In this document: in pieces, positions 37,763 to 47,581 of the stretch
Layout: each line of letters starts with the position of its first letter
Numbering within the stretch: position 1 is the first letter of the stretch
DNA from: Candidatus Latescibacterota bacterium
GTDB taxonomy: Bacteria > Latescibacterota > UBA2968 > UBA8231
Direction: 5' to 3'
Assembly: GCA_965223905.1 (NCBI GenBank)
Contig: CBDCXV010000011.1
Coordinates: 704,001 to 768,000 of the forward strand
Length of the DNA: 64,000 bases
The notes under the pieces: model-generated
The model's database searches: none
Told to the model about the DNA's origin: nothing
The model's input: only the letters and a program-made list of their open reading frames with translations
Made by a program: the position numbers and the translations under genes

Positions 37763-38596
37763 TCATGCCGGCGTCAGGTGAGCGATCGTTTCGCAATGGG
37801 GTGTCTGGGGAAAGAGGTCGATCGGCTGAAGGGACGGTACTCGAAACCCGCCTTCGCAGAGAACCCTCGCGTCAGCGGCCAGGGACGTTGGGTTGCAGGA
37901 GACGTAACCGAGGGACGGGGGTCTCATTCCGATCAGGGCCCGCAGCACCGACTTGTAGATTCCCGCGCGTGGGGGGTCCGCGATCACGAGATCGAATCTC
38001 CTGTTTTCCGCCATCAGGACGGCGATCACCTTCTCAACACGGCCCGCCCTGAAGGTGCAGTTTCCCCCCGTTCCGTTCTTTTCGGCGTTTCTGCGGGCGT
38101 CGGCAACCGCCTCCTCGACCTGCTCGATTCAAATCACCCTGTCGGCCCGTTTTGCCAGGTGAAGGCTGATGCCTCCTGTCCCGCAGTAGAGGTCGAGGAC
38201 AGTGGCGCCGGTCAGATCACCCGCCAGCGCCAACGATCTGCTCGTACAGAACCGCTGCCTGACCGGTGTTGGTCTGGAAGAAGGCCGCTGAAATCTCGAA
38301 CCCGATCCCTCCGCAGACTTCCGAGATCCTGCCGCTTCCCTTGAGAACGAACTCCCGTTCTCCGATGGCGGCCTGGGCCTTTCCCCGGTGCAGGGTCACG
38401 ACAAAAGTCGTTATCTCCGGAACCCTTTCCAGGACACAGCGAACCAGGTCTCCGACTCCCTTGTCCGGGTACTCTGAGACAACCAGGTTCACCATCACCT
38501 CGCCGGGATTCCTGCCTTCCCGGACCACGCACGGTATCGAGAAGATCCGGTTCGACAGCTGCGACTGGAGACGGCAGTCGAGCACGTCGAAAATCC
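37763..38596 (-). pseudogene. rlmD: 3' part of 23S rRNA m5U methyltransferase (RlmD/RumA family), frameshifted with an in-frame stop
   Basis: FFQTN, DLYCGTG, DPPRAG, YVSCNP and FPQTPH motifs across a frameshift; TGA after RVI. Confidence 0.88.
38589..38596. repeat. Left 8-bp target site duplication GAAAATCC
   Basis: Identical to 46545-46552; each copy abuts a TIR. Confidence 0.92.
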
Positions 38597-38630
38597 GGTA
38601 GTACGTCAGTTTGAAATCGAGTTATCCACA
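38597..38630 (+). repeat. Left TIR GGTAGTACGTCAGTTTGAAATCGAGTTATCCACA, ending in a DnaA box
   Basis: 29/34 identical to the reverse complement of 46511-46544. Confidence 0.92.
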
Positions 38631-38671
38631 CCCCAGGAAGTGTAGTATTTACAGTAACATACCTTCCTTAA

Positions 38672-38754
38672 GGGGGCGCGGAGTCCTTGGGAGGATGGAT
38701 TGGTCTTGACTCCGTCCATCCTGTGTGCCAAGGGTCAAGATACTCCGCGCCCCC
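38672..38754 (+). ncRNA. Putative structured RNA motif, copy 1
   Basis: Perfect 13-, 6- and 8-bp nested stems plus 7-nt loop/junction complementarity. Confidence 0.5.
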
Positions 38755-38775
38755 AGCATTTCGGGGGACAAGGGA

Positions 38776-38845
38776 GCAGGGCCGGTTGTGTGGGAGCGAG
38801 CAGTCCGATGCAGCTCGCTCCGATAAACCATCGGATTGGCCCTGC
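38776..38845 (+). ncRNA. Putative structured RNA motif, copy 2 (same topology)
   Basis: 8-, 4- and 9-bp nested stems plus TCCGATG/CATCGGA pairing. Confidence 0.5.
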
Positions 38846-38893
38846 CCCCCACTTGACATTGCCAGCTTGCGCCTCCAACCACAGGAGGCAGAT

Positions 38894-39160
38894 ATGGAAA
38901 GCGGAAAGCTCAAACCAGGATGGCAGGAGGGCATCAAGAAGCTGATCGCAGAAGCAGACCGGCAGGAGGAACTAACTCCGGGTGACGGGGAGGATTTGAG
39001 AGGTGCCCCCCCCGCCTCCACGGGATTCGAGAGCGGCGATCCGGGAAACAGCGGATTCAAGGTCATTTCGGAGAGAACGGAGCGTCTTTTCAAACAACTG
39101 GAGCTGGGCTTCGAGCGCATCAATGCTCTCCGCAAGGCCAGGGGGCTCCCACCCGTCTAA
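38894..39160 (+). CDS. Hypothetical 88-aa protein
   Basis: AGGAGG RBS and upstream TTGACA (38853); overlaps an antisense ORF. Confidence 0.5.
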   Translation: MESGKLKPGWQEGIKKLIAEADRQEELTPGDGEDLRGAPPASTGFESGDPGNSGFKVISERTERLFKQLELGFERINALRKARGLPPV

Positions 39161-39286
39161 GCGCATCAGTTTCTCCAGCTTTTGGGTTGCCTCTTCCACC
39201 TTAAGTGAGTTAGTGACAGGGGTGTTCAGATACTTTTGAAGCCTCTGTATTTCCTTGTCGAACTGCGCCATCGTGATTTTCTCCAA
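38972..39286 (-). CDS. Hypothetical coiled-coil protein
   Basis: Heptad pattern LAESIDALEAQLQLFEKTLRSLRNDLESAVSRIAALE; directly follows the upstream ORF. Confidence 0.5.
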   Translation of the reverse strand: MEKITMAQFDKEIQRLQKYLNTPVTNSLKVEEATQKLEKLMRLDGWEPPGLAESIDALEAQLQLFEKTLRSLRNDLESAVSRIAALESRGGGGGTSQILPVTRS

Positions 39287-39290
39287 AGGG

Positions 39291-39587
39291 TTAGGCGGTG
39301 GCGATTTGCGGCCCCTGGCTGTTACGAGCAGCCGGGGCCGTGTCTATGTTCAGCATTTTTTTCAATTTCATATCTGTCTGTTTGTAATCTTGCACGGCAG
39401 ATCCATCTGCAATTGAGCCCGGCAGAGCTATTGGTATAGGGCTCCACTTGCCGCCACTGGTCCGATAGTCCCACATGGTTCCATCATCGCAAATCACGAT
39501 GTAGGAGCCATCAAAATGTCCACGCACCATTGCTACAGGCTTTCTGGGTTCCGGAACTGGGACTTCTTGTTGACTATCGTCACACAC
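39291..39587 (-). CDS. Hypothetical protein, translationally coupled to the transposase
   Basis: Overlaps the transposase stop; ICDDGTMW...W.P.P motif. Confidence 0.55.
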   Translation of the reverse strand: MCDDSQQEVPVPEPRKPVAMVRGHFDGSYIVICDDGTMWDYRTSGGKWSPIPIALPGSIADGSAVQDYKQTDMKLKKMLNIDTAPAARNSQGPQIATA

Positions 39588-40470
39588 TTTCCTTCTCCAT
39601 TTTCCGGTAGGTTTTGGGACGATCTGGCTTGGGAGCCCTGTAGTCGATCAGGTCCAAGATCCAGCCTATGTCGTAGGGCCATTCGAAGATACCGGCTTTC
39701 ATGGCCGGGGTTTTTCCGTCCAAGCTCATGTGAGGGCGGATGAAGTTGTAGTACAGGAAGTAGAGGCTGCACATGTGAACGTGGTTCTGGAACTTCTTGC
39801 TGAATCCGTTGGTGCTTCGAGTGAACCGCCTCATTCCCATTCGCATGGTGAGGTTCTGACGTTCGACATGTGAGGTAGTGATGTGCTTGGGATCAGGATC
39901 ACCCTTTATCACCGATTTTTCGCTAGTGACTTCGATGGGGAGGGTAAATTTCCCATCTGGAGTATTCGTCGGATACTTGAAAGATTTCACAAGCTGGCTG
40001 TAGTCTACGAAGTTGCCGAAAGCCTTATCTACGGACTCTTGATAGGACCCCAAACCGTCAGTGGTCAGTTGCACTCGATAGGCAAGTCGACTCTGGAGGT
40101 CCTTCATGAACTTCTCGCCGGTTTCAATGGTGCGATCCCCGATCTGGTAAGAGACGATCAACTTACTTTTGGGATCTATGGCAGTCCAGGTCCAGATGTC
40201 CCCGGCAAAGGGAGGGGGATTCTTGGCCGTTTCGACGTTCTTCTTCTTGGCGTAGCAGAAAGCCCATATCTCATCGCACTGAATGCGCTTCGCCCTGACC
40301 ATGCGGACATTCCGGTCATGGAACTCGGCAGCGGCTTCTCCAGCGTCAACGAGCAGCTTCTTGACGGTGTTGAAGGAGCATCGGACAAGGCGGGCAGTGG
40401 CCTGCATCGAGTTGCCTTCTACTAGAAGATTCAGGACTTGCTCACGGTCTGACCTTGGGAGGGTTTTCAT
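39580..40470 (-). CDS. IS1-family DDE transposase (single ORF, HTH + DDE)
   Basis: LLVEGNSM.ATARL HTH; QCDEIW, TTDG and VERQN triad; RRFTR.TNGFSKK; YNF.RPH; TPAM.AG. Confidence 0.92.
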   Translation of the reverse strand: MKTLPRSDREQVLNLLVEGNSMQATARLVRCSFNTVKKLLVDAGEAAAEFHDRNVRMVRAKRIQCDEIWAFCYAKKKNVETAKNPPPFAGDIWTWTAIDPKSKLIVSYQIGDRTIETGEKFMKDLQSRLAYRVQLTTDGLGSYQESVDKAFGNFVDYSQLVKSFKYPTNTPDGKFTLPIEVTSEKSVIKGDPDPKHITTSHVERQNLTMRMGMRRFTRSTNGFSKKFQNHVHMCSLYFLYYNFIRPHMSLDGKTPAMKAGIFEWPYDIGWILDLIDYRAPKPDRPKTYRKMEKESV

Positions 40471-40510
40471 GCTTGCACAGTTCCTTCTTTGGGAGGGATT
40501 TCATACAAAT

Positions 40511-40539
40511 ATAGTACGAAAAAAACCGTGCAAAATCAA
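40511..40539 (-). promoter_or_regulatory. Putative sigma70 promoter of the transposase
   Basis: TTGATT-17 bp-TACTAT. Confidence 0.55.
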
Positions 40540-40569
40540 CGTAATCCAGTTAAAAAACAACTATTTATG

Positions 40570-40605
40570 GCTTCAATGAGGCCGGGGTCCGAAGACCCCG
40601 GAAAG
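40570..40605 (-). CRISPR. Solo 36-bp CRISPR-like repeat resembling type I-G (I-U): CTTTCCGGGGTCTTCGGACCCCGGCCTCATTGAAGC
   Basis: 8-bp hairpin and 3' GGCCTCATTGAAGC end; no second copy and no cas genes seen; TATAAT at 40630-40625. Confidence 0.7.
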
Positions 40606-40758
40606 GCAATGGCAAGGAAAGGATATTATATACAATCTTACCCACGGAGACTGGTAAAGCCTACCGCTTCCGTCCTGATTCCTCCAGGTAGCATGTCATC
40701 TCCCTTCGCGAGCCCGATCCCTCACTCGCCTTCATCTAGGATCAGACCAAGCATTTGT

Positions 40759-40995
40759 CTACTCGCATCGAGCTTTGCAGGTATCGGCAGCTTTACCGGA
40801 CCGGGCAATACAGGCTCTCTTGTCACTGTCCCAAAACCGGGAAAAGCATACCGGTATACTGTCCTCGTAATCCTGCTGGCAATAACTGATACACCGCGCC
40901 TTAGCCTCTTCTGCGGAACAGGAGCTGGCAGGATTGGAACGGCTGCATCCATAGACCAACACAGCGGCCGCGATCAACAGCAGTGCGGGTGTCAT
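40759..40995 (-). CDS. Small Cys-rich lipoprotein
   Basis: AGGAGG RBS; lipobox VYG-C; CxxxC motifs. Confidence 0.65.
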   Translation of the reverse strand: MTPALLLIAAAVLVYGCSRSNPASSCSAEEAKARCISYCQQDYEDSIPVCFSRFWDSDKRACIARSGKAADTCKARCE

Positions 40996-41037
40996 GCGAC
41001 CTCCTTGGTCAGCTGTCGGAAGCGTCTACGGCGGGGG

Positions 41038-41370
41038 TCAGTCACCGTACAAAATCGAAGGGTGGCCCCACTTTAGATCCCATCCTTTCGCGCCGACGAT
41101 ATAGCGGTGGAAAGAAACGCCCGGATCGGTTTTCGTAGCTGCTTGTAGATCATCAGCTTGGTTCTGCTCGTTGGGTGAATCCATAGTATCGACTTCAACG
41201 ATCCATATTTTGCCGTCCTTGTAGGCGACTATATCGGGAATTCTACCGTTGATAGATTTCGGAGTTGGATGCGTATCTATGTGGTCAGCTTCAACATCAC
41301 AACCTGCTTGCTCAAAAACCTCGACGATTTTGTCCACAGCCAAGTTGTGGACTGTCTGTTCCCATGCCAT
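41038..41370 (-). CDS. Small PD-(D/E)xK-fold nuclease-like protein
   Basis: IPDIVAYKDGKIWIVEVDT; AAGGAG RBS; TACAAT at 41470-41465. Confidence 0.6.
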   Translation of the reverse strand: MAWEQTVHNLAVDKIVEVFEQAGCDVEADHIDTHPTPKSINGRIPDIVAYKDGKIWIVEVDTMDSPNEQNQADDLQAATKTDPGVSFHRYIVGAKGWDLKWGHPSILYGD

Positions 41371-41487
41371 TCTGAAATCTCCTTTTCGGTCTGCATCAGA
41401 GTAAGGCACACCTGATGCCAGCTCATCGCAAGGCCGTAACTCCCTGTTTCCAGGGAGACCAAGCATTGTATCAGCAGCTTTCTATTG

Positions 41488-41679
41488 TCACTGTTCCATT
41501 TCTATGCGACTACTGTAAGGACTCCCCCACAGGCATACCGAGAGTAGAACCCAGATATACCAGTGACCGCTTGTGTGCTTCGGAGGATATTGCCGGCTGT
41601 AGGTGCGGTAGAGGTTCCACCACCCAACCGCTAAGGGGATCGTCAAGGCCAAGAGAAATGCACCTACATCCTTTCCCAT
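41488..41679 (-). CDS. Small 2-TM protein
   Basis: Two hydrophobic segments. Confidence 0.5.
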   Translation of the reverse strand: MGKDVGAFLLALTIPLAVGWWNLYRTYSRQYPPKHTSGHWYIWVLLSVCLWGSPYSSRIEMEQ

Positions 41680-41698
41680 TTAACTACCGTTGGTTTTG

Positions 41699-41923
41699 TT
41701 ATGATTTTCCGTTTTGTTCATCATTGCGGTCGAGTTCTGATCCTACTTTGTTTCCCGCCAGTAACCCCAGTGCTCCCACTATCGCCCCTAGGGGAATCGT
41801 CGCCGGCGCAGCCCAGCCACCTGTAGCGATACCTATACCAGCCCCGATCTTGGCTCCAATAGCAGCGCCAGCGGCTGCTCCGCCTGCTGTTCCAACCAAT
41901 TCCTTTTTCCTTTTCTTCTTCAT
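41699..41923 (-). CDS. Glycine-zipper small membrane protein
   Basis: Basic N-terminus followed by GxxxG repeats; AGGAG RBS. Confidence 0.65.
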   Translation of the reverse strand: MKKKRKKELVGTAGGAAAGAAIGAKIGAGIGIATGGWAAPATIPLGAIVGALGLLAGNKVGSELDRNDEQNGKS

Positions 41924-42037
41924 GTCCTGTCTCCTTTTTCTGTCTCTGCCAAAAAAAAGACCGCGCCGGGGTCTAACCTATCGCACCGAACTCCCCCGAA
42001 GCGGTTGGCGGCGAATCTCGCCGCACGAAAAATTCCG

Positions 42038-42217
42038 TTACTTCTTTTTCCGACCCGAGCCGGATTTGCGGCCAGACTTCGGCTGATCCTCTTTAGCAGA
42101 GGTCCCGGTCACCGGGACCCTTACGTCTTCCTCTTCCCCGGTGGCGATGCGGCACACCTGCACCGCCAGTGCAATGGGGCTGGACGGTCGAACTTCGCCG
42201 TTAGGTCCTATGGGCAT
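42038..42217 (-). CDS. Small basic protein of the MPxGPxGExRP...RIATGE type, recalled as accompanying this IS1 clade
   Basis: MPIGPNGEVRP..IALAVQVCRIATGEEE with K/G-rich tail; RBS and TTGACA upstream. Confidence 0.65.
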   Translation of the reverse strand: MPIGPNGEVRPSSPIALAVQVCRIATGEEEDVRVPVTGTSAKEDQPKSGRKSGSGRKKK

Positions 42218-42303
42218 GATGCCATCCTTTCCGTTAAGGTGTAACGAACGATGCGGCATCGGATTGGGAATGTCAAGCTAATACTTCGATAATCATAGAG
42301 GGA

Positions 42304-42588
42304 TCACGGCGGAAAATCCGCGAGGGCTGCCCGGCGATTGGATAGGCTTTCTTCTCGGACGTCCTCAGCCCTCAGCGGTGCGTTCATGCGTTCCCGCAAG
42401 GCGGCTCCCAAGGCGGAAAGGGTGCGTTCCCGGTCGCCTTTGCGCAGAAGAGCGTGCAAAACCTCTTCGTTTGGCTTCGGGGATCGCAGTTCATCGGAAA
42501 TGGCCTTCGGCAGGGCTTCCTTCGCTCGGCCTTGTTGCCTTTGGGGTTCCATCCAGTTTGACGGTTTTGGCACGGGGTGTTCAGTCAT
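42304..42588 (-). CDS. Hypothetical protein
   Basis: AGGAG RBS; ATGA overlap with the upstream ORF. Confidence 0.5.
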   Translation of the reverse strand: MTEHPVPKPSNWMEPQRQQGRAKEALPKAISDELRSPKPNEEVLHALLRKGDRERTLSALGAALRERMNAPLRAEDVREESLSNRRAALADFPP

Positions 42589-42839
42589 TTCTCCTGGTCA
42601 AAGGCAGTGTGGTATCTTTTTGTCAGCAGAACCACGTCCTTGAATGTGGGGAATATGAACCGTTTCGCCCGGCTATCTCCAGTAGCTGTCCAGCGGTTGA
42701 TTTCGAACCTGTTGCTCTCCCGGGATTTCAGGTGGTCGCCGTCCGGGTCCTGTGCGTGCGCTTGGAGTTGCAGGCCGACTTGGATGAGGTCGTGAGCCAT
42801 TTCGAGTAGTTCAGCCCGTAGGTCTTCCGCGTCAGACAT
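42585..42839 (-). CDS. Hypothetical protein
   Basis: ORF in the co-oriented run of micro-genes. Confidence 0.45.
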   Translation of the reverse strand: MSDAEDLRAELLEMAHDLIQVGLQLQAHAQDPDGDHLKSRESNRFEINRWTATGDSRAKRFIFPTFKDVVLLTKRYHTAFDQEK

Positions 42840-42897
42840 TGGATTCTGTTCCCCTGTTCAGGTTTATTGGCCGTGCCGGGGGTCTGAGACAATACCG

Positions 42898-43149
42898 TTA
42901 CTTCGGATGGTTCTCCAAATGCTCGACGTGGTATTGCCGTAACTCCGTCAACTGGCCTTTGATTTCCGTAAGAGTTTGATCCGTGTTATTCTGACTGGCC
43001 TTGATCCGCTTGCCAATGGCCTTATGGGCTTTGTTGTTAGTTTTGTTGGTCGTCTTCAGCTCGCTTTTCAGGTTGTTGCGCAGTGCTGCATACAGGGCCA
43101 CAACAGCCAAGACAATGGTCCCAACGGCAATCCAGATTTCGGAAGTCAT
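42898..43149 (-). CDS. Small N-terminal TM + coiled-coil protein
   Basis: Hydrophobic N-terminus, heptads, C-terminal HLENHPK. Confidence 0.65.
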   Translation of the reverse strand: MTSEIWIAVGTIVLAVVALYAALRNNLKSELKTTNKTNNKAHKAIGKRIKASQNNTDQTLTEIKGQLTELRQYHVEHLENHPK

Positions 43150-43184
43150 GGGAGGGTCCTTCGTTGGGTTGGTTCAAAATTTCT

Positions 43185-43532
43185 TCACGTACCGGAGGTT
43201 CGGTCCCTGATTCGGTTCTTTGTCCTTCTATTGGCCCAAATGGACAATCCTGACAGCCCGCCACAGGCCAAGCCGAATAATCCCAAAAGAATCGCGCCCC
43301 CCCTAGATCCATGAGGAGTTACAAGAAGCGTCACCGAGGCGCCAAATGAAGCCGTGGCAATACCGATGCAGAACGTTCCCATCCACCCTATGGTTTCGAG
43401 ACCTTCGACCTCTTCTTCGGTCAGGGAATACATTCTAAGCGTTCTCGTTTCTTGGATGACATTGACGTTGTTAGCGGAGGATGGTGAAATCTCACCTCCG
43501 CCGCCCTTTTCAGACACTGAGTTCTTGCTCAT
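43185..43532 (-). CDS. Small 2-TM protein
   Basis: Two TM segments and a basic tail; overlaps the Zn-ribbon ORF. Confidence 0.55.
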   Translation of the reverse strand: MSKNSVSEKGGGGEISPSSANNVNVIQETRTLRMYSLTEEEVEGLETIGWMGTFCIGIATASFGASVTLLVTPHGSRGGAILLGLFGLACGGLSGLSIWANRRTKNRIRDRTSGT

Positions 43533-43824
43533 GCTTTGAGTCGGAAATGGGTTTTCCCAGATTTTTAATCCCCATCACGACGGCACTGAAAATCCTGGTA
43601 AATCCACACTTCCCGCAATGGAGCAAGATGGCGGGGAAGCACACCCTTCCATGGGGGGACTGTGTTGTCCCGAGCGACGTAAGGCTCATTAAATGTGTAT
43701 TAATGAACCACCTGTTACTACGACATTGGGAACAATTGGGACTTATCCCATTGTCTTCCATCCATTCGTGTATTCTATCTATATCTTCTTCCGTTAGCTT
43801 ACCATCAGCCTCGGGCATTCTCAA
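43510..43824 (-). CDS. Zn-ribbon protein
   Basis: CSQC...CGKCGF; AAGGAGG RBS. Confidence 0.65.
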   Translation of the reverse strand: MRMPEADGKLTEEDIDRIHEWMEDNGISPNCSQCRSNRWFINTHLMSLTSLGTTQSPHGRVCFPAILLHCGKCGFTRIFSAVVMGIKNLGKPISDSKHEQELSV

Positions 43825-43879
43825 GCCTCCTTAGATGACCTTACGATGATCTTACAATGATCTCATTTCGCCGTTCTCC

Positions 43880-44017
43880 TCACTCCACTCCTGTTCTGCC
43901 ATCCAGGTGGCGGTCGAGGCGGTCGTTGTGACGGTCGATTCGGCTTCCAATGTCTCGCCAAAAGGCACCCAGAGCTGCCAGTACCACGAGCATGGGAATG
44001 ATTTCCGTCCAAGTCAC
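43880..44017 (-). CDS. 45-aa TM + coil microprotein (MTWTEIIPMLVVLAALGAFWRDIGSRIDRHNDRLDRHLDGRTGVE), not in the ORF track
   Basis: GTG start after GAAGGAGG; hand translation. Confidence 0.6.
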   Translation of the reverse strand: MTWTEIIPMLVVLAALGAFWRDIGSRIDRHNDRLDRHLDGRTGVE

Positions 44018-44039
44018 CTTGGGCCTCCTTCAGGAGGGA

Positions 44040-44309
44040 TCAGCTGCCGTTGACGGGTCCGGGAGTGGGGCATGGATCGAGCCGGCCTTCCACTCTATAC
44101 AACCCCTTTTCCACATAGTCAAGGCGCACATCGATGCGGGCCAGAGCCTTGCCCTGAGCAGACAGTTCCTACTGCATGGCGTTCATCCGGGTGTCCATCA
44201 GGTCCATTCTGGAACTCAGGCTGGAGCTGAATCCCCACTGGCTGCCGATGATGGCAACCAGAAGTCCCAAGAGCACCAGAACGTCCTTCCAGTTCAGTCT
44301 GCCGTTCAT
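44040..44309 (-). pseudogene. TM + coiled-coil microprotein with an internal TAG (44171-44169)
   Basis: MNGRLNWKDVLVLLGLLVAII...RMNAMQ*ELSAQGKALARIDVRLDYVE; heptads continue past the stop. Confidence 0.55.
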
Positions 44310-44573
44310 CTTGGGCCTCCTTCAGGATAGGTGGTCTCCCACCGCTACCCTGAATTTCTCGCCATGAATAGGGAATGTCAAGCCAAAAACCGCTTGTGGA
44401 CGCCCGTGGGGTACTGTAAGGTATGAGCCGTCCGCTTCTCTACACGCAGGATCCGACTGAGGTCGGGTCTCCTGCTGAATGCAATAGCCAGTAGTAGAAC
44501 CCGGCCAAGGGGTCGCACCCCGAGGCAAGGCGAATAGGCAGGACTTTCCCGCGCGTTCCTGCGTGTCAGGGAG

Positions 44574-45335
44574 GTGGACAAGGCCCGGCACCCTTTTTTT
44601 CGGGGTGTCGTGGTGGCCGAAAAGTCCACCTCGAAACGCGGGAAATCGGTCGTGCAACACCCCTCCCAGAAGCATCTCAGTAGCTACAGATCCACCTGTT
44701 CGTCACTGTCTCAAGGGACGGTCCCGGTGTGCCATACCTGGACGGCTGTCCACCGGAAGGGGTTTGTCCACTCCTTCTTGCGGGAATGCCGTAGGCCGGG
44801 ACCGCTCTGCTTTTTTCTGTCGTGTCTGGTGCTGATCGGTTGCGCCAGAGACAGCAGCACCACTCCTGAATCTGCCCCCCCTGCGGAGTCAGTCTCCAGA
44901 CCAGATCCAGACGATCTGGACCTTTGGAGCTACGGTTACAACAGCAGCCAAAGGGTGCACATCTTGAGACACACCGCCACCTCAGAAGGGGTGGACTGCA
45001 CGATGTGGATTGAATGCAGGGGGACTCCCAGCTTCCCGGACTTGTATTTCTGGATTCCCAGAGGAGACTTCAATGGTTGGGGAGGCACACCTGGATACGA
45101 TGGGGATTGGCCAGATCAACCGGTCATAAACCTGACATGGGGAGAAGAAAATCCAGAACCTACCAAGATGAATTTGAGCAAGAACACCTTCACTTTTCAG
45201 GACCGGAAATGGAAGGACAAGATGATGTCGAACGACATCCTGTTGATGGAATTGCCGTGGGAACAATACGGCTCACTGTATTTCTATTTCGATCTCAGAG
45301 AAGGAAGACAACTCCTCAGCTACCACTGCTTATGA
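44574..45335 (+). CDS. Hypothetical lipoprotein (true start probably near 44780)
   Basis: Hydrophobic stretch with lipobox LIG-C, P/S-rich linker and a globular domain. Confidence 0.55.
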   Translation: MDKARHPFFRGVVVAEKSTSKRGKSVVQHPSQKHLSSYRSTCSSLSQGTVPVCHTWTAVHRKGFVHSFLRECRRPGPLCFFLSCLVLIGCARDSSTTPESAPPAESVSRPDPDDLDLWSYGYNSSQRVHILRHTATSEGVDCTMWIECRGTPSFPDLYFWIPRGDFNGWGGTPGYDGDWPDQPVINLTWGEENPEPTKMNLSKNTFTFQDRKWKDKMMSNDILLMELPWEQYGSLYFYFDLREGRQLLSYHCL

Positions 45336-45368
45336 ACCACATCCATACCCCTCCCAAGGAGCAACTCG

Positions 45369-45524
45369 ATGACGCTTGCCAGTGAGCTGGTGAAGAAGCT
45401 GGAAGAAGAGCTGTCAGAGACTCAGAAAAAGCTCAAAGCAGAAGAGCAGAAGTCAGACAAATGGAAGAAGAAGGCAGGCGATAGATGGCAAGAGATTGAA
45501 CGTATGAAACGCAACTCGGGTTGA
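45369..45524 (+). CDS. 51-aa charged coiled-coil microprotein (MTLASELVKKLEEELSETQKKLK...), not in the ORF track
   Basis: AAGGAG RBS; hand translation. Confidence 0.5.
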   Translation: MTLASELVKKLEEELSETQKKLKAEEQKSDKWKKKAGDRWQEIERMKRNSG

Positions 45525-45525
45525 C

Positions 45526-45783
45526 TCAATCTATCAGCAGACCGCAGCATTGAATTACAAAACCGAGGACCAAAACAGATACTCCGACCTTTGCTCTTCG
45601 AGAATCCTTGAGCAGTTGCTGGACCATTGGGAGCTTCATGTGGTCTTCCCTTGTCTCTCCTACCCATCGTGAAACTCCAAGCTCGATGGCCTTATCCCTG
45701 GACATGATAATGCCTGAACCCAAAATCACAGCTCCAACAATGTCCATCAGGAGACCAGCTACCTGAATTGATTCAGTAGACAT
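45526..45783 (-). CDS. Small 2-TM protein
   Basis: GLLMDIVGAVIL ... GVSVLVLGFVIQ. Confidence 0.6.
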   Translation of the reverse strand: MSTESIQVAGLLMDIVGAVILGSGIIMSRDKAIELGVSRWVGETREDHMKLPMVQQLLKDSRRAKVGVSVLVLGFVIQCCGLLID

Positions 45784-45784
45784 G

Positions 45785-45979
45785 TCAACCGGTCTTCTGT
45801 TTGGGGTCGAAGTGGATTTCCTGCTTGTCCGTGGAGAGGAAGAGCTGGTCGAGGTACCGCAGTCTGGTGTTCACGGTAGGCGAGGGAGGCACCTGCACCT
45901 TGCCGGCATGAGACAGATCGGTCCGGGAGGTGTGAGCTTCCCGGTCGGTCAGGGCGACGATGTATTTCAGTCGGGCCAT
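45785..45979 (-). CDS. Hypothetical microprotein
   Basis: Co-oriented and abutting its neighbours. Confidence 0.35.
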   Translation of the reverse strand: MARLKYIVALTDREAHTSRTDLSHAGKVQVPPSPTVNTRLRYLDQLFLSTDKQEIHFDPKQKTG

Positions 45980-46476
45980 AGCAAGTGCTCCGGGAGTAGG
46001 ATGTAGACCGGTTCCTGATTCCAGAAATCGCCTAAGCCTGCAGCCATGTGGGCTTCCATAAGGGTACGAATACCTGTGGCAAGTTCGATATCCAGTGTGG
46101 GGTTGGCCAGAGATTCTCGACGCATATGGGCCATATGGCGCTCATGAGCTGAACGTCCCAAGAGAGGGGGGCAGGTCGACTTTTCGGCGTCGGATGTCTT
46201 CTTTCTTTGCTCGTCGTTTCAAGTCTGAGTAATTCCGTCCAGATTGGTGTTGATTTTTTTTCTCAGAATGGTATTTTTCAAGTGCCATTAGGCACTCCTT
46301 TCTTGAGAGGGAAGGAAACGAAAGCAAGGGACTGGAGATAGCCTATGCCAAGGCTTTCGGTCCCTTCTTTCATTTTGGGGTCAAAACGTCATCATGCTGG
46401 GCAATATACGTACTTTGTTCCCAAATCTCCAGGTTCAGCCACGGAATGTCCAGGACGAATCAGATATCCCTAAAAA

Positions 46477-46489
46477 AATCAACCATTTA
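46477..46489 (+). promoter_or_regulatory. IHF-consensus site AATCAACCATTTA near the right end
   Basis: Matches WATCAANNNNTTR exactly, with an upstream A-tract. Confidence 0.5.
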
Positions 46490-46510
46490 CCTACTGTTTG
46501 TGGATAGAAT

Positions 46511-46544
46511 TGTGGATAACCCAGGTTCAGACTGACGTACTACC
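46511..46544 (-). repeat. Right TIR, containing a DnaA box
   Basis: Reverse complement GGTAGTACGTCAGTCTGAACCTGGGTTATCCACA. Confidence 0.92.
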
Positions 46545-47006
46545 GAAAATCCGGTTGTAGCGACCGCGGTGGTGCAACCCCAGCAACGTGCCGCCTCCGC
46601 AATCCCTGCCGAAGAACTCCATCTTGTTGCGGTAGAAAAACGGGGCGCGACTCGCAATAATCGGCCTTTGCTCGTCGCAACGGAGACCCTGTTGCTCCAG
46701 TGCATTTTGCAACCATCCGTTCCTTCAATCGCAACTGGTCGCCGTAACGGAGGTCCTACCAGCGGCACCCGCCGCACCCCGAAGTTAGGGCATTCGGAGG
46801 CTACCCGGGGGATCGGGGTGCTCGTTATGCGGTCCGCAGTCGCCTCCCAGATTCTCCCTTTCCTCCTGCGCACGGTTCGCTTCCACACGATCCCCGGGCA
46901 GCGTCCGGCGAACGATGAACTCCGAGTCGTCGATCCTGGCCCAGCCGTCACCCTGGGCCGTTAACTCGCGGATATCTAGCTCAATCCTGTCTCCGCGTCT
47001 TGGCAC
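46545..47006 (-). pseudogene. rlmD: 5' part of rlmD (TRAM domain and Fe-S motif), frameshifted; 46545-46552 is the right TSD
   Basis: LPGDRV; CPNFG then CGGCRW* in another frame; YRNKMEF. Confidence 0.88.
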
Positions 47007-47053
47007 TGGCCGAAACCGTTACGGTGCTGAATGATGGTGAACCGAGGTACATG

Positions 47054-47111
47054 AAAAAGCGAGGCGCACGAGATGATGCCATTTTCACCATCAAAAGCGC
47101 GCCTCGCCTTT
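47054..47111 (-). terminator. Possible intrinsic terminator after rplQ
   Basis: GCGAGGCGC/GCGCCTCGC stem followed by a T-run; large loop. Confidence 0.45.
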
Positions 47112-47161
47112 CGGTTGAGGGAGTGGACGCTCCCGGCCGGGTGGTTCACCCAGGGTCGTCC

Positions 47162-47581
47162 CTATTCTTCTTTCTTTTCCGTTTCCTGACTCGCGGTTGG
47201 ACCTGACGCCGGAGCACGGCTACCTGGCCTGTCGACCAACTCGATTATGCACATCTCGGCACCATCGCCACGCCTCGGCTCACCCTTGACAATCCGTGTG
47301 TACCCGCCGCTGCGGTTGGAGTAGCGCGGACCGATCTCGTCGAAAAGCTTTGCCACTATGCGCTTGTTGGCTATTGTGCGCAGCACCTGGCGACGCGCAT
47401 GCAGATCGCCCCTTTTGGCAAAGGTGATCAGACTCTCGGCGGTTCGCCTCAGTTCCTTCGCTCTCGCCGTTGTTGTATGGATAGCCTCGTGTTCGATCAA
47501 AGAGGTGACCATGTTGCCGAGCATCGCCTTGAGATGACTGCGATCGCGGCTCAGCCTGGCCTTTTTGTTCCTGTGTACCAT
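47162..47581 (-). CDS. rplQ: 50S ribosomal protein L17
   Basis: GGYTRI, RRGDGA motifs. Confidence 0.96.

Follow-up and report, generated by a model that had tools for sequence, protein, structure and literature searches.

A 64,000-nt stretch of a Candidatus Latescibacterota genome (C11:704001-768000, hereafter the window; the genome, G000, comprises 7.9 Mb in 11 contigs with 64% G+C) contains a solitary 36-nt repeat of the kind found in clustered regularly interspaced short palindromic repeat (CRISPR) arrays, lying within a cargo transposon of the IS1 family of insertion sequences (IS). The repeat is intergenic according to the list of open reading frames (ORFs) of the window and is read on the minus strand, as are all the ORFs around it (142 aa, 78 aa, the transposase, 98 aa and 104 aa). 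It lies 100 nt upstream of the transposase ATG, which is at 40470, and the 99 nt that follow it have a G+C content of 34%. An initial annotation of this DNA had described the minus-strand order as TATAAT (40630-40625), 19 nt and then the 36-mer with an 8-bp stem and a UUCG loop, followed by some 30 AT-rich nt and a -35 box for the transposase. This layout was recovered at the same coordinates and the stem-loop was confirmed by folding; the -35 box corresponds to a TTGATT (40539-40534) that was read by eye and precedes a TACTAT (40516-40511), the pair matching the consensus at 8/12 positions and falling under the threshold of the promoter scan, which did not call it. The coordinates of all features are collected in Table 1.

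Only one copy of the repeat is present in the window when up to three mismatches are allowed, and 0/100 shuffles gave a match. No second repeat, full or partial, accompanies it: the best ungapped match downstream extends to 16 of the 36 positions, a level that 958 of 2000 shuffled sequences also reached. None of the genome-wide matches to cas1, csb2 or cas7g falls inside the window, in agreement with the reported lack of both a second repeat and a cas gene in this stretch. The TATAAT hexamer upstream is likewise singular, with one occurrence in 128 kb (the window, both strands) and a probability of about 0.026 of arising by chance in 60 nt of local composition.

The predicted fold of the repeat has an energy of -17 kcal/mol, which was equalled in 3 of 200 shuffles, and the repeats of two arrays elsewhere in the genome (arrays A and B, described below) adopt the same type of fold. 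The published structural account of a type I-G effector describes a 36-nt repeat in which Csb2 cleaves 4 nt 3' of the hairpin, so that an 8-nt handle is produced; it gives an affinity of 43-55 nM for the binding of Csb2 to the hairpin and reports that Csb2 remains bound to it (PMC9638904). The 3' tail of the solitary repeat is 12 nt long, consisting of CCUC followed by AUUGAAGC, and a cut 4 nt past the stem would give an 8-nt handle. As read from the sequence, its geometry is an exact match to that of the published Csb2 substrate; cleavage itself is only predicted.

Boundaries and relatives of the transposon

The transposase has a single copy in the genome, and the ends of the element were therefore learnt from relatives. 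These were recognised in 401 of 450 candidate stretches in genome_contigs, of which the best 80, with 46-57% identity, were kept. In two groups of relatives (L026-L029; L049-L051) the copies in a genome are identical; they delimit elements of 2.8-3.2 kb that have the ends GGTAGTGTCTCA(G/C)TTTGA and 8-bp duplications, and a family end consensus, GGTAGTGTCTCAGTTTGAA, was derived from the multi-copy relatives. Ends of this kind and duplications of 8-9 bp are typical of the IS1 family, and its single-ORF subgroup bears the name ISMhu11 in ISfinder, a name that occurred in no paper listed by a literature search. A search of the window for the family end gave one match, at 38597 (+), where about 0.02 would be expected by chance, and the sole inverted-repeat partner in the window is at 46544 (-), with 25/30 positions matching and the first 14 nt identical. 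The span so delimited coincides with a trough in G+C content (50-56%, against 64% for the genome), and no other copy of the transposon was found in the genome.

Two congeners possess the corresponding empty site, with flanks that are 91% and 89% identical in G002 and 84% and 82% identical in G001. In both genomes the flanks are contiguous and overlap by exactly 8 bp, and in G002 the empty site lies within an intact 452-aa ORF encoding a uracil-5 methyltransferase, the C-terminal remnant of which is still recognisable in the window. The two pieces of the split methyltransferase gene (37763-38596 and 46545-46951, (-)) are in different reading frames, and the gene may have decayed further after the insertion. 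Weak support for the empty-site form also comes from contigs of the same sample, one record of which joins 38587 to 46544, the shorter side of the joint being 34 letters long. Judged from these boundaries, the repeat is part of the cargo of the transposon and not a mere neighbour of an insertion sequence; the initial annotation had positioned it correctly, upstream of an IS1 transposase, but the repeat does not simply lie beside an IS, being enclosed in a 7,948-bp transposon. At 42896 there is an end-like 12-mer with one mismatch, a hint of a nested or extended element, and the repeat would be inside it either way.

Of the 80 relatives, 44 have a left-end motif 0.9-2.4 kb upstream of the transposase and 36 have none on that side within the 2.5-kb flank; genes in this upstream position are thus a regular part of the family's cargo. 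The present element resembles such IS1-family insertion sequences with passengers in its DDE_Tnp_IS1 transposase, its ends beginning GGTAGT, its 8-bp duplication and its possession of cargo, but at 7.9 kb it exceeds any relative for which both ends were located, and a CRISPR repeat is part of its cargo. When compared with plasmids the transposon DNA matched 5 records, in the transposase region only, and the plasmid relatives of the transposase are annotated as 'IS1 family transposase'; a comparison with phages gave no match. Contigs of the same sample covering 38000-47200 (runs X1-X3) contain internal joints (39858 to 40186 and 45433 to 45801) and loose ends (41457, 40206 and 39280), which suggests that mosaic variants of the transposon exist in the community.

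Type I-G arrays and lone repeats in the host and its relatives

The genome holds three arrays of one design, with repeats of 35-36 nt. Array A (C10:90933-92854, (-)) comprises 14 repeats that are 34/36 identical to the solitary repeat and is an orphan, genome-wide searches having placed no cas1, csb1 or csb2 nearby. Array B (C11, approximately 1244675-1246043) is built of the repeat GTTTCCGCGATCTTTTGGTCGCGGCCTCATTGAAGC, which is 28/36 identical to the solitary repeat and shares with it the flanks TTTCCG...CGGCCTCATTGAAGC. It adjoins genes encoding Cas3g (511 bits), a Cas3-extension protein and Cas4g/Cas1g (739 bits), all of which score above the NCBIfam cut-offs. Array C (C10:1255137-1256929), with 24 repeats of the form GTCGCCGGGGTAAGCACCCCGGCCTTCGTTGAGCG, adjoins genes for a Cas1 fusion, a Cas3-extension protein, Cas3g, Csb2 (a full-length match with 193 bits) and Csb1; this locus contains the sole csb2 and the sole csb1 that rose above the cut-off in genome-wide searches. 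The solitary repeat and the array C repeat have the 7-bp stem core CCGGGGU/ACCCCGG in common, whereas array A has AUCCCGG instead. With the Rfam model CRISPR-DR16 the solitary repeat scores 30.2 bits (E 0.00066), which falls short of the gathering score of 35, and the true array repeats of the genome fare no better (27.5-31.6 bits, likewise below 35). By its likeness to these arrays the 36-mer is a genuine type I-G-family repeat of the host bacterium, the genome of which has two type I-G loci and three I-G-type arrays. The assignment to type I-G that was made from the repeat alone is therefore upheld by its identity to array A and to array B, the latter beside Cas4g/Cas1g and Cas3g, and the host does encode I-G systems, at the array B and array C loci. 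Two further arrays in the genome have 29-nt repeats and their own Cas1. No self-targeting I-G spacers were found in the genome.

In the array B locus (C11:1232168-1246043) the place of the effector genes is taken by an ISL3 transposase together with two or three AAA-ATPase/PD-(D/E)XK_9 genes, and an ORF first taken for cas2 falls within variant repeats of the array. In the array A region (C10:90933-93192) a 970-nt gap separates repeats 13 and 14; a 120-nt segment within this gap recurs on both sides of the array (92-96%) and has related copies on contig C9 (85-93%), and the ORFs in the gap match no Pfam family.

Among 168 genomes of the phylum, 34 contain the pattern TTTCCG-N14-CGGCCTCATTGAAGC at up to 2 mismatches, for the most part in arrays, and the GGCCTCATTGAAGC ending that the initial annotation had described as typical of I-G repeats does hold within this phylum. 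Solitary matches occur in 8 genomes (G042, G023, G010, G135, G142, G151, G158 and G052), which together with G167, where a decayed four-repeat array adjoins cas3g, account for loci L148-L156. The solitary repeats of G135, G142 and G151 are in syntenic positions; that of G151 is beside a cas3g fragment, and that of G135 is followed after 38 nt by a degenerate second repeat. In G023 the repeat is approximately 400 nt from csb1-csb2, and in G042 an rve integrase is 2 kb away. The G010 repeat lies approximately 180 nt upstream of an rve_3 transposase gene and beside a group II intron reverse transcriptase; it is followed by a long perfect hairpin, and one leader-like flank is duplicated elsewhere in that genome. 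The solitary or decayed repeat loci of these relatives contain neither the IS1 transposase nor homologues of the cargo. Repeats of this family thus often come to stand alone, in some cases as plain relics, and their frequency in the clade makes a function less probable a priori for any one of them.

Contigs of the same sample also contain repeat-37 nt-repeat units that fit the solitary repeat at 95% or more, with depths of 4 and 2.4. The spacer of these contigs is absent from this genome, which makes it probable that an array with a nearly identical repeat belongs to a co-resident organism; this would fit a host-matched decoy and a recent capture equally well. The two differences between the solitary repeat and array A were at one point considered as changes that improve the stem. 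This idea was dropped; since the sample holds an array fitting the solitary repeat at 95% or more, these differences more likely reflect a different source array.

A candidate RNA anti-CRISPR and its alternatives

Solitary repeat units (SRUs) and RNA anti-CRISPRs (Racrs) are known already and have been described in viruses, prophages and plasmids (Camara-Wilpert et al. 2023, PMC10651486). Candidates were selected there for a sequence and fold resembling those of host repeats, an intergenic location with no partial repeat near, presence on a mobile element, a promoter within 250 bp and a host of the matching subtype. The identity of the repeat described here, its solitary state, its location in a mobile element and the presence of I-G systems in the host are directly established, and at the level of sequence it has the features of such a candidate, the promoter being represented by a lone -10-like box. 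We tentatively interpret the repeat as a transposon-borne, Racr-like RNA anti-CRISPR that could serve as a decoy for Csb2, in line with one of the readings offered by the initial annotation, an IS-borne I-G Racr, with which the sequence features agree.

The mechanism that we propose is modelled by analogy on RacrIF1, an RNA that forms an aberrant subcomplex with Cas6f and Cas7f (PMC10651486). Transcription of the unit would be driven by its own -10-like box or would result from read-through of the cargo genes, which have the same orientation. Host Csb2 would then, through its Cas6-like domain, bind the hairpin, cut 4 nt 3' of the stem and stay on the hairpin. The freed AUUGAAGC handle, together with the non-guide RNA attached to it, may seed unproductive Cas7g filaments. 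Csb2 and Cas7g would in this way be diverted from real CRISPR RNAs (crRNAs), with weaker I-G interference against the transposon and the replicon that carries it as the expected outcome. It is conceivable, if slightly more doubtful, that a type I-G repeat decoy travelling as IS1-family cargo confers protection from I-G systems on whichever plasmid, phage or chromosome is hit; with the same reserve, such a decoy, if real, might be the first Racr known from a transposon, and its target would be Csb2, a fusion of Cas5 and Cas6.

The unit and the published Racrs are alike in consisting of one unpartnered intergenic repeat on a mobile element, with the sequence and fold of a host repeat, a promoter-like box upstream and a host of the matching subtype. 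They differ in their carriers, that of the present unit being a chromosomal IS1-family cargo transposon, whereas the published survey searched prophages, plasmids and viral contigs only. Types I-G and I-U are absent from the main text of that paper, although its supplementary tables may list I-G units. A further difference is that no predicted acr gene lies near the solitary repeat, which is here a candidate from sequence alone.

Several results weigh against a decoy function. No RNA run is listed for the organism, and transcription of the unit is putative; the TATAAT box lacks a convincing -35 partner and the promoter scan made no call. The -10 box that had been suggested for the repeat corresponds to this hexamer, which is 19 nt upstream and unique in the window. 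No terminator follows the repeat, the terminator scan having found 0 sites in 40300-41100. A 30-nt degenerate repeat pattern gave 0 matches in viral_contigs, genome_contigs and metagenome_contigs, the repeat pattern was present in 0/60 relatives, and only one copy of the unit is known, with the consequence that conservation cannot be used as evidence of function. The initial annotation had raised the question of whether related IS1 elements carry a repeat at this position; none of the 80 related IS1-family loci has a comparable repeat (0/80), and the 15-nt tail of the repeat has 5 matches among them at 2 mismatches, none preceded by a hairpin-forming stretch. Spacers from the 5 arrays of this genome and from G150 include none that match the transposon (0/175), and there is thus no sign that the transposon is targeted by CRISPR. 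The cargo proteins belong to no known or informative Pfam or PHROGs family and include no anti-CRISPR or Aca-like helix-turn-helix protein. The large subunit Cas8g was not identified in either I-G locus, and active interference in the host is therefore putative; the Cas8g model TIGR04113 gave no match, but its control matched nowhere either. Finally, relic solitary repeats are frequent in related genomes, and a lone repeat can persist without a known role.

The main rival view is that the repeat is an inert passenger, an array fragment (a repeat with neighbouring sequence) that was captured into the cargo by recombination or because an alternative end was used; it would be functionless and would simply not have decayed so far. 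Mobile elements do occur in or beside CRISPR loci of this genome and its kin, as exemplified by the ISL3 transposase in the C11 I-G locus and by G010; relic solitary repeats are common, being found in 8 genomes among the 34/168 that have the repeat family; the cargo of this IS family is mosaic and differs between elements; and neither conservation nor expression evidence favours a function. We nevertheless regard an inert passenger as somewhat less likely than a decoy. All 36 nt are intact and form a perfect hairpin within an intergenic stretch of 34-50% G+C, neither flank resembles a leader (compared by eye with arrays A, B and C and with G150) or a spacer-plus-repeat, no cas remnant was detected in the transposon (best E 0.03), and the only TATAAT of the window is located 19 nt upstream of the repeat. 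The relics and orphan repeats left by locus decay in G135, G142, G151 and G167 are similar in being derived from the same repeat family, but the solitary unit has no cas fragment, leader or degenerate neighbour and is enclosed by the inverted repeats of a transposon that two congeners lack at the same site. A CRISPR locus that decayed in place was rejected on the same grounds, namely the lack of a cas remnant and flanks unlike the leaders of the arrays.

The remaining alternatives assign the hairpin a local or a guide role. If it were a cis-acting element, Csb2 cleavage or the hairpin itself would separate read-through transcripts from the transposase message, and such an element would tie the output of transposase to an active I-G system in the host. 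The co-orientation of the neighbouring ORFs, the position of the repeat 100 nt upstream of the transposase ATG and the published finding that Csb2 cleaves such repeats in any transcript (PMC9638904) are all consistent with this, and the initial annotation had proposed a Csb2 site controlling the transposase. This proposal is weakened by the promoter-like TTGATT-17-TACTAT downstream of the repeat, between it and the ATG, which would give the transposase its own transcript without the repeat, so that only read-through transcripts would carry it; moreover, 0/80 related elements have a repeat at this place and the repeat is unlike a terminator. Both the separating role and the coupling to the host system are in our view improbable. 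It is still less credible that the repeat is an intrinsic terminator, or a stabilising 3' hairpin, for the upstream cargo genes, in spite of its being a strong GC hairpin 155 nt past the stop codon of the 78-aa ORF. The absence of any terminator site in the scanned interval argues against a simple terminator for this lipoprotein-like gene, which the initial annotation had named as a rival to its own reading; the first U run begins 24 nt past the stem, and a chance hairpin would not show 34/36 identity to a host CRISPR repeat, an identity that extends to 16 unpaired flanking bases.

A one-guide crRNA-like regulator (of the CreR, CreA or Cracr type) or a mini-array, recruiting host Cascade to repress or cleave a target, is highly unlikely, and this guide reading, which the initial annotation had also offered, is largely refuted. 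The unit is derived from a repeat and has a promoter-like box, and such RNAs are known on phages and plasmids (bioRxiv 10.1101/2024.10.29.618823). CreR and CreA of cas loci and the viral Cracrs are similar to it in being small RNA genes derived from repeats outside a normal array. In the description given in that source, the short pseudo-spacer of these RNAs is enclosed by two (pseudo)repeats and shows 9 or more PAM-proximal (protospacer adjacent motif) matches to a cas or toxin promoter, whereas the solitary unit has one repeat, with no second or degenerate copy, and no target; the repeat-38 nt-degenerate repeat arrangement is instead found in the relative G135. The best match of the 50 nt downstream in the genome is 13 nt long (E 3.5), and no PAM-proximal seed longer than 7 contiguous bases was found in the two cas loci or around array A, against the criterion of at least 9. 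In addition, Csb2 binds the 3' hairpin of the crRNA (PMC9638904), and an RNA produced from this unit would lack one.

No publication placing an RNA anti-CRISPR or a solitary repeat unit in a transposon was found in a literature search, and what is presented here is a transposon of the IS1 family whose cargo includes a candidate Racr of type I-G. If a simple cut-or-copy transposon can carry a Racr, anti-CRISPR activity could pass from one replicon to another with no need for a phage or plasmid backbone, and surveys that mask insertion sequences would overlook it. Type I-G is the least studied type I system, and a natural decoy for Csb2, if confirmed, would be a useful probe as well as a compact inhibitor for I-G genome-editing tools. 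Should the repeat prove to be inert, the case still illustrates the capture of pieces of CRISPR arrays by transposons.

Cargo genes and other features of the element

Table 1. Coordinates in the window of the transposon, the solitary repeat and associated features
Feature	Position	Strand	Basis
IS1-family cargo transposon, 7,948 bp	38597..46544	(-)	inverted repeats, duplication, empty sites, 50-56% G+C
IS1-family DDE transposase, 296 aa	39580..40470	(-)	Pfam DDE_Tnp_IS1, 38.6 bits against a cut-off of 24.1
Terminal inverted repeat, transposase end, GGTAGTACGTCAGTTTGAA...	38597..38626	(+)	family-end search
Terminal inverted repeat, far end, GGTAGTACGTCAGTCTGAA...	46515..46544	(-)	25/30 to the other end
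8-bp target-site duplication GAAAATCC, left copy	38589..38596	.	flank overlap in G001 and G002
8-bp target-site duplication GAAAATCC, right copy	46545..46552	.	flank overlap in G001 and G002
Solitary 36-nt type I-G-family CRISPR repeat (SRU), CTTTCCGGGGTCTTCGGACCCCGGCCTCATTGAAGC	40605-40570	(-)	unique in window
Hairpin CCGGGGUC-UUCG-GACCCCGG, 8 bp	40582..40601	(-)	-17 kcal/mol
Predicted 8-nt 5' handle AUUGAAGC	40570..40577	(-)	expected from the published Csb2 cutting rule (PMC9638904)
Predicted Csb2 cut	between 40578 and 40577	(-)	expected 4 nt 3' of the stem
TATAAT, -10-like box, 19 nt upstream of repeat	40625..40630	(-)	sole TATAAT in window, either strand
TTGATT-17 nt-TACTAT, promoter-like, for transposase, downstream of repeat	40511..40539	(-)	by eye
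78-aa Cys-rich lipoprotein-like ORF, upstream of repeat	40759..40995	(-)	no Pfam/PHROGs family
142-aa ORF	41038..41466	(-)	no Pfam/PHROGs family
73-aa small protein, motif RIATGE	42038..42259	(-)	by-eye match to cargo of related IS1-family elements

Among the cargo proteins, the product of the 142-aa ORF has an atlas lead only, to AHJR-like nuclease-fold clusters (score 0.94), and no relatives of it were found in metagenome_contigs. The small protein with the motif RIATGE, or (A)RIATGE, belongs to no Pfam family and recurs near the left end of related elements, at L026:718-933 and within 1108-1569 of L025. A 41-nt stretch of its gene matches C10:472616-472656 at 90%.

A conserved element of approximately 140 nt is present elsewhere in the cargo (44462-44605 (+)), just upstream of a 253-aa lipoprotein-like ORF. 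Copies with 68-92% identity occur in many genomes of the phylum, and there are two more in this genome. The element contains no conserved ORF and gave no Rfam match at E values up to 1. RNAalifold analysis of 21 copies predicted 27 pairs, 11 of them with compensatory changes, and several copies are followed by a terminator-like hairpin and AGGAGG-ATG. The modelled fold looks like that of a structured RNA, and the element is a candidate riboswitch or leader.

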